Program-made: the position numbers and the translations under genes
The notes under the pieces: model-generated
Told to the model about the DNA's origin: nothing
Seen by the model: only the letters and a program-made list of their open reading frames with translations
Database searches by the model: none
Assembly (NCBI GenBank): GCA_963776275.1
Contig: CAVZMI010000028.1
Location: 48,868 to 112,867 of the forward strand
From: Ignavibacteriota bacterium
GTDB lineage: Bacteria; Bacteroidota; Ignavibacteria; UBA10030; CAVZMI01
Direction: 5' to 3'
Length of the DNA stretch: 64,000 nucleotides
In this document: positions 4,428 to 44,329 of the stretch, one piece after another
How the letters are laid out: the number at the start of each line of letters is the position of its first letter
Numbering within the stretch: position 1 is the stretch's first letter

Positions 4428-5601
4428 TGTGATTAATTAATTGGAGCGAACTAATTGGTAATATTATTGAAACGGAACGAGCGATTATTGCCATGAACTT
4501 TCCTGCCTGCCCGCCGGCCTGTCCGCCGAAGTCAGCTGTATGCTGACGAAGGCGGAAGTGGAACGAAGGCGTGGTCCGCCGAAATCCGCCAACCTGTCCG
4601 CCATAGCCGAAGGCGTAGGCGGAAGGCGGATGGAGGCGGAAGTTCGTATTGCCACGAACTTCAGTTCGTGGTTTCTTTCAAATCGCTAAACCACGAGGGT
4701 TTTAACCTCATAATTTTGGACCAATTATGCCCTTTGTAAGAGTCTGGATTCATCTCGTCTGGACAACAAAAAATCGTCAGCCAAATCTGGAAAAGAAATT
4801 CCGGGATAGGCTACTTGACCATATCCGTCAAAACGCGAAGGTAAAGGGGATCTATCTAGATTCCATAAATGGCTTTATTGATCACATCCATGCTCTCCTT
4901 TCCATTCGTTCGGAACTTTCCATCTCCAAAGTCGCCCAATTATTAAAAGGTGAATCATCACACTGGGCAAATGAACTGAAACTCGCTCCAAACGAAATTG
5001 AATGGTAGGAAGAATATTTTGCGGTGTCGGTCAGCGAGTCGGATATAGGGATTGTGCGTAACTATATTCTGCATCAGGAAGAACACCATCGGAAAAAGAC
5101 ATATTCTGAAGAGTACCAGGAATTTATGCAGCAATACCACGGTGAGTGTGGTGGGTTAAAACCCGCGGGAGAGGGTGAAGATTCAATTGCCACGACCTGA
5201 AGGTCATGGCAACAGCTAATATTAGCAGCATGATGCAGCAATACCACAGTGAGTGTGATGGATTGAAACCTGCGGGAGAGGTGGGGAGATTAAATTGCCA
5301 CGAACTTTAGTTCGTGGTTTGTAAAAAGAAAAATAGATGGGTTTTAACCCTATATTAAAAAGCCGTATGCTAAATATATGGGGACTAAAGTCCATTTGAG
5401 TTTGGATTTTATTTTCCACGACCTGACCCCACTGGATCCCACGAACAACGTGGGGCCGTAAAAAGCACGGAAGCGTGGGGCGTAAATCCCACAGGCCCCA
5501 CAAAAAACGTGGGACCGTAAATCTCACTGGAGAACGTGAGACGGAAAAAAACGGAACACGGAAACGTGGGACGGAAAAAACCCGAAGCACGAGGTCGTGG
5601 C
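4428..5601 (+). mobile_element. IS200/IS605-type (RAYT-like) tnpA locus flanked by REP-like palindrome pairs
   Basis: Y1 transposase with CCACGAACTTNAGTTCGTGG / CCACGACCTGAAGGTCRTGG hairpins at 4651, 5189, 5297 and 5416-5601, and GGGTT(TT/AA)AACCC-type palindromes; no tnpB. Confidence 0.75.
4727..5200 (+). pseudogene. tnpA: IS200/IS605 family transposase (Y1 HUH) with in-frame TAG at 5006-5008
   Basis: HLVWTTKNR, DHIH (HUH), LLKGESSHW, then W*EEYFAVSVSES...RNYILHQEEHH in the same frame to TGA at 5200; the conserved WQ has become W-stop. Confidence 0.88.
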
Positions 5602-11128: not shown

Positions 11129-11305
11129 GTGTCAATGGCTCTAAAAGTTGAAGGTTTAAGGTTGAAGGTTTCAGGTTGGGAGGTTTAAAGTTTAAGGTTC
11201 ATGAGATGATTCTGGATAATGGCGACTGTACAGAGAGAGTATTCTGCTTCAGTTGGAAATGGATTTTTTGGCAATTAAATTAAGATAGAAGCCAAAGGAG
11301 AACCT

Positions 11306-12603: not shown

Positions 12604-12910
12604 AGCTGTAATTCCATTTTCCGCTGAACCAGTACAAGAGAGGTCAGGTCTCAACTGTCACTGCAACTATCGAAAGAAATAGCTGCATTAATTTCGTACC
12701 TTAAACGGTCTCCCATTAAAGGCCACAAATATAACAACTTTAAACTTGAAACTTTAAACCTGAAACTTTAAACATCTATCCTCATCTGTTTTTTCTGTAA
12801 CCAACCGGGATAACGGATTGACATATTTAAGGGGGTATTGTGGTGTGAGAAGATATTCTAATCCGTAAACCAGACACTATTTTGCTAACTATTTCTACAA
12901 GGAGCGCTCT

Positions 12911-15934: not shown

Positions 15935-16032
15935 GTTTCAAGTTGGGAAGTTTAAAGTTTAAAGTTGGGAAGTTAGAAGTTTCAAGTTGGGAAGTTAGAA
16001 GTTTCAAGTTGGGAAGTTTAAAGTTTAAGGTT
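15935..16032 (+). repeat. degenerate 7-8 bp tandem array upstream of the four-helix-bundle gene
   Basis: Alternating AAGTTTA / AAGTTGGG / AAGTTAG / AAGTTTC units. Confidence 0.85.
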
Positions 16033-16051
16033 GTTAAGAGAGCTATTGATA

Positions 16052-16459
16052 ATGGCGACTGTAAAGAGATTTGAGGAATTAAGGATTTGGCAGGAAGCCC
16101 GTCAGCTTGTACGGGAAACTTATAAAATGACCAGCACTCGGCCGTTTGAAAACGATTACGGTTTGAAGAACCAGATCCAGCGTTCCGCCGTCTCGGTGAT
16201 GTCAAATATTTCCGAAGGATTCGAAAGAGGTTCGAATAAGGAATTCATTCAATATCTTTTTCAATCAAAATCTTCTTGCGGAGAGGTCAGGTCTCAATTG
16301 TATGTTGCCCTGGATTTGGATTATGTCGCTAAAGAGAATTTCGTAATTCTATTAGAACAAACACTGAAACTTTCGAAAGAAATAGCAGCATTCATTTCGT
16401 ACCTTAAACGATCTCCCATTAAAGGCCACAAATATAATAACTTGAAACCTGAAACCTGA
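16052..16459 (+). CDS. four helix bundle protein (23S rRNA intervening-sequence protein family)
   Basis: FEELRIWQEA, DYGLKNQIQRSAVSVMSNISEGFER, SCGEVRSQLYVALD. Confidence 0.93.
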   Translation: MATVKRFEELRIWQEARQLVRETYKMTSTRPFENDYGLKNQIQRSAVSVMSNISEGFERGSNKEFIQYLFQSKSSCGEVRSQLYVALDLDYVAKENFVILLEQTLKLSKEIAAFISYLKRSPIKGHKYNNLKPET

Positions 16460-16498
16460 AACCTGAAACCTGAAACCTGAAACCTGCAACTTTGAACT
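16443..16498 (+). repeat. (TGAAACC)x6 plus two degenerate units
   Basis: Direct count; approximately the inverse complement of the upstream array. Confidence 0.9.
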
Positions 16499-41149: not shown

Positions 41150-42187
41150 TCACACGGAATTAATTGGCCCCGATGTCCGGCGAACTACGAGTGTCGGAAC
41201 AAAAGTTTTAAGGATCGGTTCTAAATTCTTTTGTTTCATACGTTCAAACAGACGATGAACTGCAAGCGATCCCATCTCCGACATTGGTTGTCTCATGGTG
41301 GTTAATCCTATATGCCGGGCTAATTCGATATCATCGAAGCCAACCAGAGCGATGTCTTCCGGGCATCGAACGCCCTCCTCATCCATTGCCTGAAGAGCGC
41401 CGGACGCTTGAATATCGCTTGTCACAAAAACAGCAGTCGGCCTGGAAACACCAAGGGAAAGAAATTGTTTCATCAGATTATATCCATCTTCATGAGTGAA
41501 TCCATCAAGGTGTGAAGATTTGCTGTGCTTTATCAAACACGGTTCAACGGGAATATCTGCTTTTCTCAATGCCTGTTTAAAACCCTTCAAACGCTCACGG
41601 GCCGGGGGACTTTCAAGATTTGCATTCAAGATGCCAATATGCCGGTGCCCGAGTGATATGAGATGATCTGTTGCAATAGCAGCGCCGCGGACATTTTCAA
41701 CTGTGAACGAATCGAAGTCCGGATGGTAGGTATCAACGAGTACGATAGGGACATGTGAATGGACATATTCGCGGGCAAATTTATCCGGTACCTTCAACGA
41801 AAAGATAAGCATGCCGTCCACTCGACCGCGTACGGTATTTTTCTTTAATGTTCCTTCTGCGTGATCGGGATTCGTGACTCCATGGAGAATGAGATCGCAT
41901 TCGGATTCCGCAAGAGTAGCCTGAACCGCCTGAAGTATTTCGACGAAAAAGAACGTCGTGAAATACGGGATAATCGCGAGGACCGAGTTGGTTCTATTAC
42001 TGGCAAGACCTCGTGCATACGGGTGAGGATGATAATTCATCCTCTTTGCGATGTGAAGAACACGAATCTTCGTGTCGTGTGAAACATTAGGATGGTTGTT
42101 GAAAACACGTGAGACTGTACCTATTCCGACACGTGCTTTTTTCGCGATATCGTAAATGGTCGGTGGCACAATAGAATAATTATTCAA
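41150..42187 (-). CDS. LacI-family transcriptional regulator
   Basis: TIYDIAKKARVGIGTVSRVFN, VGFDDI, LTTMRQP; start may be the GTG at 42169. Confidence 0.95.
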   Translation of the reverse strand: MNNYSIVPPTIYDIAKKARVGIGTVSRVFNNHPNVSHDTKIRVLHIAKRMNYHPHPYARGLASNRTNSVLAIIPYFTTFFFVEILQAVQATLAESECDLILHGVTNPDHAEGTLKKNTVRGRVDGMLIFSLKVPDKFAREYVHSHVPIVLVDTYHPDFDSFTVENVRGAAIATDHLISLGHRHIGILNANLESPPARERLKGFKQALRKADIPVEPCLIKHSKSSHLDGFTHEDGYNLMKQFLSLGVSRPTAVFVTSDIQASGALQAMDEEGVRCPEDIALVGFDDIELARHIGLTTMRQPMSEMGSLAVHRLFERMKQKNLEPILKTFVPTLVVRRTSGPINSV

Positions 42188-42205: not shown

Positions 42206-42357
42206 AAAATCCGAATTTTCCTTCTCAGAGTCAAGCTTTTTTTTGCTGGAATTCAATTTTTTTAAAAATCTTATTGCTTAGGATAGAAAAGGGTGCTGTG
42301 TTAATAATAGCCGAAAAAGCCTTGCTTTTCGAAGAAGTAGAGACCTTGTCGAACCTG

Positions 42358-42752
42358 TTTACCGTGAGCTTGTCGAACGGTCGAGACCCGGTCGAACGGT
42401 CGAATCACTTGTGGTGAGCTTGCCTGCCGTGAGTCTATCGAACGGTCGAACCACTTGTGGTGAGCTTGCCTGCCGTGAGCTTGTCGAACGGTCGAACCAC
42501 TTGTGGTGAGCTTGCCTGCCGTGAGCTTGTCGAACGGTCGAACCACTTGTGGTGAGCTTGCCTGCCGTGAGCTTGTCGAACGGTCGAACCACTTGTGGTG
42601 AGCTTGCCTGCCGTGAGCTTGTCGAACGGTCGAACCACTTGTGGTGAGCTTGCCTGCCGTGAGCTTGTCGAACGGTCGAACCACTTGTGGTGAGCCCCTC
42701 GACCCCTCGATAAACTCGGGGCAAGCAAGCTCGGGGTAAACTTGTCGAACCA
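42358..42752. repeat. 46-bp tandem repeat (6 full units, 42405-42680) built from nested 23-bp palindromic units
   Basis: Unit CCACTTGTGGTGAGCTTGCCTGCCGTGAGCTTGTCGAACGGTCGAA; no spacers. Confidence 0.92.
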
Positions 42753-42805: not shown

Positions 42806-44329
42806 TCATTTTTCCGCTACGCGGTTCAATCTATCCGGTTTACATCGCCCGTAGAGCTCGGTCAACTTGTATAATTTGTTTGTCGCCCGGGATTCAATTT
42901 TATCCCATGTAAACCGCCATTCCCAATTTCCTTCAATAGTACCGGGAAAGTTCATTCTTCCATCACTTCCAAGTCCGATGATATCCTGCAATGGTATCAC
43001 TGCAATATCTGCAACCGATTGTAATGCAAGCTTGATCAAGTCCCAATTTATTTTATGACCATCCGTTCCGCAATATCGCTTGACAAAATCGCGTTCCTGT
43101 TCAGTAGCCTTGTCATACCAGCCAAGAGTTGTATCATTATCGTGTGTGCCGGTAAATACGACATAATTTTTTTCATGGGTGTGTGGGAGAAAATTATCTT
43201 CCGGACCGCTTGAAAATGCAAATTGCAGCACTTTCATTCCTGGGAAACCAAATTTTTCCCGCAGAGCGACGACTGCCGGCGTGATTACACCGAGGTCCTC
43301 CGCAATAATCGGAAGAGTACCTAGTTCCCGCTTCACCGCCTTGAAGAGGTTTTCCCCCGGTTCCTTCACCCATCGACCGATCCTCGCTGTTTTTTCTTTT
43401 GCAGGTATTTCCCAGTACGCTTCAAATCCCCGGAAGTGATCGATGCGGATAATATCAAACAGCTCGAATGTCTTCCGGAAGCGTTCAATCCACCACCGAT
43501 ATTTTTGCTCCTTCATTTTATTCCATCGATATAATGGATTACCCCACCGTTGTCCGTCTTCGCTGAAATAGTCGGGAGGAACACCCGCTACCACGATAGG
43601 CATTCCATCTTTATCCAGAGAGAAAGCTTCTTGATTTGACCATACATCTGCACTATGATGTGCAACAAAGATGGGGATGTCGCCGACAAGTTTTACGTTT
43701 CTTTCGTTTGCATACTTCCTCATTTTTTTCCATTGGCGGGCGAAGCACCATTGTGTGAACTTATGAAAGATGACATATTCGCGCAATTCGTCTGCAGAAT
43801 TCTTCAAGGTATGTGTATTCCGATGCACGAGATCATGATCCCAGGAAATCCATCCGTTACCGTCATACCGATCATTCAGTGCTTGAAAGAGGGAATAGTC
43901 CTCAAGCCACGATTTTTCGGTGCTGCAATAAGTCTCGAATTGTTGACTGTATTCTCCATTTCTTTTTTGGAAGAAATTTTTTGCTGCTTTAGCAAGCATC
44001 GCCATTCGAGCTGTTGTAACCTGTGGATAGTTGACACGTTGATCTGAAAAGTGCGGCATTCCATCAAGATCATCCTTTGTCAACCAACCGTGTGAGACCA
44101 ATTCGTATAGGTCGATAAATAACGGACTCCCGGCAAAAGCCGAAAGAGACATATATGGCGAGTTTGCCATACCTGCCGGACCTATTGGAAGCATTTGCCA
44201 GAGCGATTGACCGGTTGATGATAACAAATCGATAAATTTATATGACTCTGCGCCAAGATCTCCAGAACCGAAAGGACCCGGTAAGGATGTTGGATGTAAA
44301 AGAATTCCGCTGCTACGAGGAAACCTCAT
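42806..44329 (-). CDS. malQ: 4-alpha-glucanotransferase (amylomaltase, GH77)
   Basis: SGILLHPTSLP, GDIPIFV, GVPPDYFSEDGQRWGNP, RIDHFRGF, AEDLG, TGTHDNDT, RMNFPG. Confidence 0.97.
   Translation of the reverse strand: MRFPRSSGILLHPTSLPGPFGSGDLGAESYKFIDLLSSTGQSLWQMLPIGPAGMANSPYMSLSAFAGSPLFIDLYELVSHGWLTKDDLDGMPHFSDQRVNYPQVTTARMAMLAKAAKNFFQKRNGEYSQQFETYCSTEKSWLEDYSLFQALNDRYDGNGWISWDHDLVHRNTHTLKNSADELREYVIFHKFTQWCFARQWKKMRKYANERNVKLVGDIPIFVAHHSADVWSNQEAFSLDKDGMPIVVAGVPPDYFSEDGQRWGNPLYRWNKMKEQKYRWWIERFRKTFELFDIIRIDHFRGFEAYWEIPAKEKTARIGRWVKEPGENLFKAVKRELGTLPIIAEDLGVITPAVVALREKFGFPGMKVLQFAFSSGPEDNFLPHTHEKNYVVFTGTHDNDTTLGWYDKATEQERDFVKRYCGTDGHKINWDLIKLALQSVADIAVIPLQDIIGLGSDGRMNFPGTIEGNWEWRFTWDKIESRATNKLYKLTELYGRCKPDRLNRVAEK

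Follow-up and report, generated by a model that had tools for sequence, protein, structure and literature searches.

Results

The repeat array between malQ and lacI

We analysed a 64,000-nt stretch of DNA (the window; assembly GCA_963776275.1, contig CAVZMI010000028.1, positions 48,868 to 112,867) from an Ignavibacteriota bacterium, with the focus on an array of 23-nt, hairpin-like repeat units in the spacer between two genes on the minus strand. The upstream gene (42806..44329) encodes a 4-alpha-glucanotransferase of family GH77 (MalQ; Pfam PF02446, E = 6e-181) and the downstream gene (41150..42187) a regulator of the LacI family with matches to Pfam LacI and Peripla_BP_3. The spacer from the GH77 stop to the lacI start measures 618 nt, and the first repeat begins 54 nt past the GH77 stop codon. 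Read on the minus strand, a block of 69 nt (42752-42684) is followed by six 46-mers (42683-42408) and by decayed units (42407-42340). In the window as a whole the motif TCGANNNRCTC occurs 15 times against 4.11 expected, a number reached in 0 of 100 shuffles. The source genome (G000) is a metagenome-assembled draft of 3.70 Mb in 38 contigs with 45% G+C and a contamination figure of 5.3%; the window is part of its contig 28.

The original prediction, made from the letters of the window alone, had described the 46-bp unit as two nested 23-mers and the adjoining block as a three-level nest. Both descriptions hold. Our parser reads six complete tandem composites (42408..42683, minus strand), each of the form TGGT-TCGA[CCGT-TCGA-CAAG-CTC-ACGG-CAGG]CAAG-CTC-ACCA-CAAG, in which a CCGT-armed 23-mer with the tail CAGG lies straight after the TCGA of a TGGT-armed 23-mer with the tail CAAG. 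One of the six carries the loop variant TAGA. TRF reports a 46-bp period at 42391-42695 with 6.6 copies in the assembly and 98% matches. Public sequencing runs were searched as Logan contigs only, in which uncovered parts of the window carry no meaning. Exact pieces of 76 nt from within the array are present in runs X3 and X4 of two other studies and thus confirm the tandem junctions; no contig of these runs spans the array, so that 6.6 copies is an assembly figure only. The six-fold amplification of the composite as a whole is most simply attributed to slippage or unequal exchange.

The coordinates of the three-level nest are exact: it measures 69 nt, that is 3 x 23, with no base left over. 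Its outer TGGT unit (42684..42752, minus strand) is split after the loop CAAG (position 12) by an insert on the opposite strand. This insert, the middle unit CCCC-TCGA-CAAG-CTC-GGGG-TAAA (42695..42740, plus strand), is split after its own TCGA (position 8) by the innermost unit CCCC-TCGA-TAAA-CTC-GGGG-CAAG (42703..42725, plus strand), whose boundaries are ambiguous by 1 nt. The older, part-decayed units (42340..42407, minus strand) include the half-units TGAT-TCGA and CCGT-TCGA as well as a GGTC-type host with a 1-nt deletion, which contains an intact CCGT...TAAA unit (42358-42380; C28:91225).

Unit anatomy and occurrence in the source genome

The core of the unit comprises 19 nt in the order arm4-TCGA-loop4-CTC-arm4', the loop being mostly CAAG, CAGG, TAAA or TAGA. 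In the source lineage the core and a 4-nt tail (CAAG, CAGG, CGAG or TAAA) together make up the 23 nt. A scan of the genome and its relatives had been suggested with the original prediction. With the reversed sequence as control, perfect-arm cores number 106 against 3 in the source genome, and 289 against 59 if one arm mismatch is allowed. The four tails follow 71 of the 106 perfect cores (CAAG 33, CAGG 20, CGAG 10, TAAA 8). Confident units number 110; they lie in 59 clusters and represent 70 distinct 23-mers. Identical 23-mers recur at unrelated loci, the commonest with 12 copies over 6 separate clusters. The units thus form a genome-wide family. As to the hairpin itself, at least 14 kinds of arm pair occur, every one self-complementary. 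Pairing of the arms is thus supported by complementarity across many arm types and not by predicted stability, which is marginal; in this respect the original prediction needs correction. Fifty of the 59 clusters lie outside open reading frames (ORFs) of at least 150 aa, though such ORFs cover 80% of the genome.

Two further repeat arrangements were noted in this genome. At contig 4:18785-18899, one 23-mer (CCCT...TAAA) is present in five tandem copies, and the orthologous site of the relative described below has a different unit content. Contigs 5, 18, 20 and 23 (e.g. C20:278340-278440) carry repeats of ~100-380 nt that share the layout of the unit but have arms of 7 bp (GGTTACC-TCGA...ACTC-GGTAACC); their loops contain 23-mers and plain hairpins, and they are present or absent as wholes in comparison with the relative.

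Nesting follows a fixed geometry

A blind excision scan was carried out around each core, in which windows at offsets of -6 to 0 and lengths of 19-29 were removed and the joint was inspected for a new core across it. Only length 23 repeatedly restored a host core, at 10 sites unambiguously and at 7 more with a boundary ambiguity of 3-4 nt; lengths 21, 22, 24 and 28 did so at one site each. Iterative removal of core plus tail uncovered 20, 5, 3 and 2 more units at levels 1-4. The nests reach five levels at two loci elsewhere in the assembly, on other contigs; one of 138 nt resolves fully into 6 x 23 and one of 161 nt into 7 x 23.

Among 29 non-redundant pairs of parent and child unit, the insertion point in the host was position 8, i.e. 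after the host TCGA, in 13, position 11 in 6, position 12 in 9 and elsewhere in 1. The six inserts at position 11 all concern GGTC-type units and have a 1-nt ambiguity with position 12. Hence 28 of the 29 inserts border the 4-nt loop of their host on one side or the other; the chance of 28/29 falling on 5 of 22 junctions is P = 2e-17. The insert has the orientation of its host in 25 cases and the opposite one in 4 (binomial p = 1e-4). The 4-mer preceding the insert is TCGA in 13 of 29 and another purine-ending 4-mer in the rest. Insertion at the loop boundary without target duplication, which had been read from the window alone, is borne out by these figures: the insertion positions are non-random, and an inserted core is flanked by two different 4-mers, from which it follows that no target is duplicated. 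We also considered whether the tail is a duplicated host loop and rejected this, as the flanking 4-mers differ in the five same-orientation cases at position 12, and for inserts at position 8 the two 4-mers fall together on the same side. Outside unit hosts the preference for loops is weaker. Of the solo blocks, i.e. those not inside another unit, 8/79 have flanks that pair over at least 6 bp, compared with 0.8% of random sites, so that loop targeting is strong for unit hosts and partial elsewhere.

Whole units are present or absent between close relatives

One relative, G001, belongs to the same genus; its genome is syntenic with the source genome at ~93-95% nucleotide identity, and its MalQ is 96% identical. 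From this relative 400 kb and 20 loci were available, and 22 unit-bearing clusters could be aligned. In its orthologous spacer the nest retains its outer and middle units, and the decayed units are kept with point differences; exactly the innermost 23-mer (a 23-nt gap) and all six 46-mers are absent. The middle unit is uninterrupted there, and the empty site reads TCGG instead of TCGA. An empty allele was also seen in an independent peat run, where a 3.7-kb contig ~94% identical to the window skips 42419-42725.

Whole-unit differences were found at 6 of the 22 aligned clusters. Besides the window locus (+23 and +276 in the source genome), these are one cluster with +24 in the source genome, one locus with a reciprocal difference (+23 in the relative and +23 in the source genome), a solo unit in the A/T-rich spacer of cluster 18 (+23 in the relative), the apical loop of a longer hairpin (+24 in the relative) and an ORF resembling a Y1 transposase (+46, a composite, in the relative). 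Further differences concern long-loop units (+44, +55) and larger composites (+155, ~+380). The composite of 46 nt, in which a TGGT unit encloses a CCCC unit, lies in the 5' part of the Y1-transposase-like ORF (Pfam Y1_Tnp, 24.6 bits). With the 46-mer, the frame of the relative reaches a stop after 47 codons; if the 46-mer is removed, it is colinear with the ortholog in the source genome. Since exact removal restores the reading frame, this difference is an insertion. The mobility of a discrete unit, as originally proposed, is accordingly supported by differences of 23, 24 and 46 nt between the two genomes and by one polarised insertion. The indel spectrum of a 348-kb alignment of the two genomes showed a small excess at 23-24 nt (6 gaps); this excess was not used as evidence, because just one of the six gaps is a unit.

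The ortholog of the broken gene (contig 37:44862-46166; L372 263-1567, minus strand) itself contains an in-frame array of ~23 copies of a 30-nt repeat. The repeat encodes the peptide ISPDSEDRMR and lies between an HUH-type motif and the C-terminal tyrosine region.

The 19-nt core occurs in many phyla

The 11-mer TCGACAAGCTC was counted across the GTDB phylum, in 300 genomes besides the source. In most of them it is near control level; in about a dozen scattered genomes, as judged by eye, it is strongly enriched (e.g. 51 against 1, 35 against 0 and 30 against 0; 52 against 6 in the source genome). The enriched genomes carry the core with longer, lineage-specific arms, often as inverted doublets or tandem half-units.

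A wider scan, over one genome each from 185,579 species, looked for exact copies of the 19-nt TGGT core. It was found in at least 120 stretches, where ~4 are expected by chance under uniform base composition. The core is spread over many phyla, a matter on which the original prediction was silent. Among the matches listed are Dehalococcoidia, SAR202, Methylococcales, Gallionella, Nitrosomonadales, Moraxella, Actinobacillus, Phyllobacterium, Hyphomicrobiaceae, Desulfuromonadales, two cyanobacteria, a planctomycete, Elusimicrobia, Acidobacteriota, Vulcanimicrobiota, Fibrobacter, Prosthecochloris, a Zambryskibacteria genome and Clostridia. The family is also present in finished genomes of cultured bacteria. 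In other phyla the core lies next to non-homologous genes and within longer hairpins (consensus cgcTCA-[core]-cGAacGG), often with a reverse-oriented CCCT or TCCT unit beside it. The 120 loci listed contain 216 perfect cores against 1 in the control; the 4-mer after the core is CGAA in 90 and TGAG in 48.

Whole-genome copies of TCGACARGCTC were counted in ten genomes outside the Bacteroidota, nine of which hold 11-359 copies, above their controls: a Dehalococcoidia chromosome (191, control 17), Phyllobacterium sp. 628 (241, control 6), Moraxella lacunata (151, control 1), Crenothrix (210, control 1), Gallionella (175, control 6), Cuspidothrix of the Nostocales (32, control 3), Prosthecochloris (19, control 1), a Zambryskibacteria assembly of 0.4 Mb from the candidate phyla radiation (11, control 0) and an Acidobacteriota genome (359, control 64). 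A Synechococcales genome is not enriched (7, control 4). Inverted doublets spaced 27-40 or ~95 nt are common in other genomes, whereas the source genome is dominated by single 23-mers and same-orientation nests. Strict nesting of unit in unit is rare in the 120 loci listed, with one clear case in a Flavobacteriaceae genome; the tailed 23-nt form and deep nests are thus so far a speciality of the source lineage. The longer form of the unit was also found in 78 IMG/VR stretches, and the ORF set of these viral loci includes a peptide translated straight through two units.

Discussion

A nested and probably mobile hairpin module

The 23-mer behaves as a discrete module: its gain, and perhaps its loss, is precise and leaves no target duplication. 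Insertion is mostly at the two loop edges of a unit already present and mostly with its orientation, which builds nests up to five deep, and composites then multiply as wholes. On balance we favour the view, with some reserve, that the spacer is a pile-up of a non-autonomous mobile hairpin module of the REP or SDR type that is moved in trans. The agent would be an enzyme. Single-stranded DNA may fold into the weak unit hairpin, whose 4-bp stem could be extended, on the strand with GAG-CTTG-TCGA, by tandem G.A/A.G pairs and a G-C pair between the boxes, sheared G.A pairs being the general background for such pairing. A trans-acting, structure-specific nuclease or strand-transferase would cut the donor unit at its foot and tail, and the excised unit would be joined into the exposed loop of a target hairpin. 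Because the same core, with longer outer arms, fills the genomes of many phyla, the recognising activity would have to be very widespread or repeatedly transferred.

Several observations weigh against this interpretation. The 29 insertions are not all independent events, as similar composites recur. The predicted hairpin energy is -1.4 to -3 kcal/mol, with z ~0 relative to shuffled sequence. Units are oriented without bias to neighbouring genes (32 against 40) and to GC skew in the source genome, so that they lack the strand bias which known single-strand transposons typically show. Except in the coding-frame case, gain and precise loss are inseparable, because the next relatives are too distant. 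Moreover, a gene consistently flanked by units, which the original prediction had pointed to as a way to the enzyme, did not emerge: none is recurrently bracketed by the 59 clusters of the source genome, clustering of the ORFs at the 120 loci listed from other phyla gave no recurrent family, just an ABC-transporter-like cluster in 10 loci, and at the 78 viral loci only GC-rich spurious or prophage clusters were obtained. The Y1 transposases fare no better. In five unit-rich Bacteroidota genomes, not one of the 12 Y1 loci lies within 1.5 kb of a unit, and the Dehalococcoidia chromosome, Phyllobacterium sp. 628 and Moraxella lacunata, three of five unit-rich genomes from other phyla, have no Y1_Tnp match at E <= 0.01. 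Y1_Tnp is so common in the phylum (220 of 301 genomes sampled) that its presence is uninformative.

A RAYT (Y1) protein as the specific driver was therefore rejected, on account of Y1 loci without flanking units and unit-rich genomes without Y1_Tnp. The source genome has nine Y1_Tnp matches in addition to the contig 37 gene; all flanks were inspected and show other hairpin families. One RAYT-like gene, on contig 38, has units nearby, the nest merely sitting in an upstream copy of the gene's own GTAG-tagged hairpin. This gene (contig 38:31040-31990; L373) encodes 211 aa, and its hairpin GTAGGTCGAAAT...ATTTCGACC lies upstream, downstream and once within the coding sequence; gene and hairpin form a classical REP/RAYT pair, distinct from the TCGA/CTC units. 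Within the window, a Y1_Tnp frame of the IS200-like type (4739-5077, plus strand; 84.9 bits) has one in-frame TAG; the hairpin repeats on its flanks are GC-rich and show no relation to the TCGA/CTC units. A search for Y2_Tnp of the IS91 type gave no match in any of five genomes, a weak negative, since control genomes were likewise silent. The idea that units are the terminal inverted repeats of an insertion sequence was rejected as well: in another Bacteroidota genome, an inverted pair 1.95 kb apart encloses ordinary genes and no transposase.

Alternative explanations

The missing gene link is what one would expect if no dedicated enzyme existed and units spread and nested by template switching of host replication and repair or by microhomology copying across the shared TCGA and CAAG-CTC, with slippage for the tandems. 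No linked or co-occurring gene was found in any set examined, units are enriched even in the 0.4-Mb assembly from the candidate phyla radiation, the half-unit tandem arrays of another Bacteroidota genome resemble slippage products, and the 46-mer array needs only slippage. Such copying does not, however, account for whole units that land without prior homology in coding sequence and in the A/T-rich spacer of cluster 18, nor for inserts with fixed ends and a fixed length of 23. Four of the 29 inserts have the opposite orientation, and the patchy occurrence among relatives (about a dozen of 300 genomes) is not expected of a universal process. That slippage alone would not suffice had been argued from the opposite-strand, differently armed nest of the window, a point that holds. 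We regard a purely host-driven origin as unlikely. Less probable again is that the unit is in the first place a functional site kept by selection, such as protein-bound DNA or an RNA end-protector, processing signal or small RNA, with nesting and indels as side effects. The identity of the core across phyla and its extragenic location would fit such a role, as would sub-threshold matches of an Rfam small-RNA model that lie exactly on units (see below). Yet a site of this kind would hardly be indifferent to the direction of transcription, come and go quickly between ~94%-identical genomes or destroy a gene with one of its copies, and the predicted stability is marginal and the array of the window without an Rfam match. 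A functional role can be compatible with mobility, as in REP elements.

It is most improbable that the array and the nests are artefacts of assembly. The source is a metagenome-assembled draft with some contamination, and an array of 46-mers extending over 305 nt is hard to size from short reads when no contig spans it. But the independently assembled genome of the relative has the same architecture minus specific units, exact junction pieces were recovered from runs of two other studies, complete nests exist at many loci, and the family is present in finished genomes of cultured bacteria.

Relation to known repeats and transposons

By analogy, the family appears most like REP elements and cyanobacterial SDRs, which are likewise very short, extragenic, palindromic and precisely gained. 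SDR1-8 of heterocystous cyanobacteria, the work of Elhai and colleagues in 2008 (Genome Res 18:1484), are reportedly dispersed repeats of 21-27 nt that insert precisely at defined positions and for which no enzyme is known; their mobility is said to have been argued from presence and absence between strains, and they are said to nest in each other. The 23-nt module falls within this range of lengths and shares the precise presence or absence between related genomes. It differs in its host, an Ignavibacteria-type member of the Bacteroidota, and in its TCGA and CTC boxes, the likeness being one of description. A passage in a 2026 paper citing Elhai et al. gives SDR5 as 21 nt long and of unknown function. 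According to another citing passage, SDR5 enters the HIP1 octamer at a precise point, the junction of bases three and four. The preferred target of the present units, by comparison, is their own loop.

With REP elements and REPINs the units have in common that they are short, extragenic, imperfect palindromes of high copy number with an unpaired tail, often arranged as inverted doublets in other genomes, and that mobility is inferred for both. Passages of Di Nocera et al. (2013, PMC3733652) define REP super-families by a conserved GTAG or CGTC tag at one end and state that CGTC REPs have no dedicated transposase. The units are without either tag. Their stems have 4 bp compared with 8-9 bp in REPs, the loop boxes are the conserved part, and among the Y1 loci examined no RAYT gene is flanked by units. 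Compared with micro-repeats of the REP and SDR type in general, the family has two unusual properties, namely self-nesting with fixed geometry and a core common to many phyla.

Other systems are more distant. Transposition of single strands by HUH enzymes (Y1 in IS200/IS605, Y2 with rolling circle in IS91) is hairpin-dependent and orientation-specific, with defined ends and no target duplication, and in outline the units are alike in all these respects. IS91-family elements insert beside specific tetranucleotides that resemble the commonest unit tails here and in other phyla. Unlike HUH elements, the units consist of a single 23-nt hairpin rather than two distinct ends, no single target tetranucleotide seems to fit them (TCGA precedes fewer than half of the inserts), and they are without Y1 association or bias towards a replication strand. 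MITEs are set apart by the lack of target duplication at nested and solo unit sites alike. A plain tandem repeat copied head to tail would describe the 46-mer array only and leave the opposite-strand, differently armed nest unexplained.

The one curated entry that comes near the family is an Rfam model, the small RNA 41 of Aggregatibacter (RF02901, AaHKsRNA41), whose consensus has an inverted doublet of a box one base off the unit box. At 3 of 8 loci, these three from other phyla, its best matches coincide exactly with units, at 26-31 bits against a gathering score of 97 and thus below threshold. RF02901 is described as a small-RNA gene and not as a repeat family, and the window's own array gave no Rfam match at E <= 10. 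At an inverted doublet of Phyllobacterium sp. 628 (L187 1426-1559), sub-threshold MIR533 matches occur on both strands with 38-40 bits against a gathering score of 80; they are probably only a likeness between long hairpins. Searches of the full-text literature by DNA strings, by translations and by the topics SDR, nested, mosaic and stem-loop found no description of the unit family, supplements being outside their scope.

How repeats of ~20 nt move is a question that has stood since the cyanobacterial SDRs of 2008. The present family leaves clean footprints, in whole multiples of 23 nt with fixed insertion points and one polarised insertion, it was recently active between two ~94%-identical genomes, and its core is found again in other phyla, in cultured bacteria whose genomes are finished. 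Taken together, these features make the question testable by association and biochemistry. A bolder proposal, which we consider doubtful, is that a pan-bacterial nuclease or strand-transferase recognises the TCGA-loop-CTC hairpin as its module, copies single-stranded hairpins of 19-33 nt into exposed hairpin loops without target duplication and is distinct from RAYT/REP and all insertion sequence families. If this were true, the units would be the smallest self-nesting mobile DNA known, and cultivable hosts would be at hand for the enzyme hunt, such as the Phyllobacterium isolate with its ~240 copies. There are practical effects as well, in that units create spurious ORFs, break assemblies and can inactivate genes.

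Cyanobacterial SDR work is also said to have noted heptamer arrays beside tiny mobile repeats. Tandem repeats of heptamers (units e.g. GTTTAAG and AACCTGA) are found in the window at 11147-11199, 12736-12773, 15935-16033 and 16439-16490, and two of these arrays bracket a small ORF at ~16060-16440.

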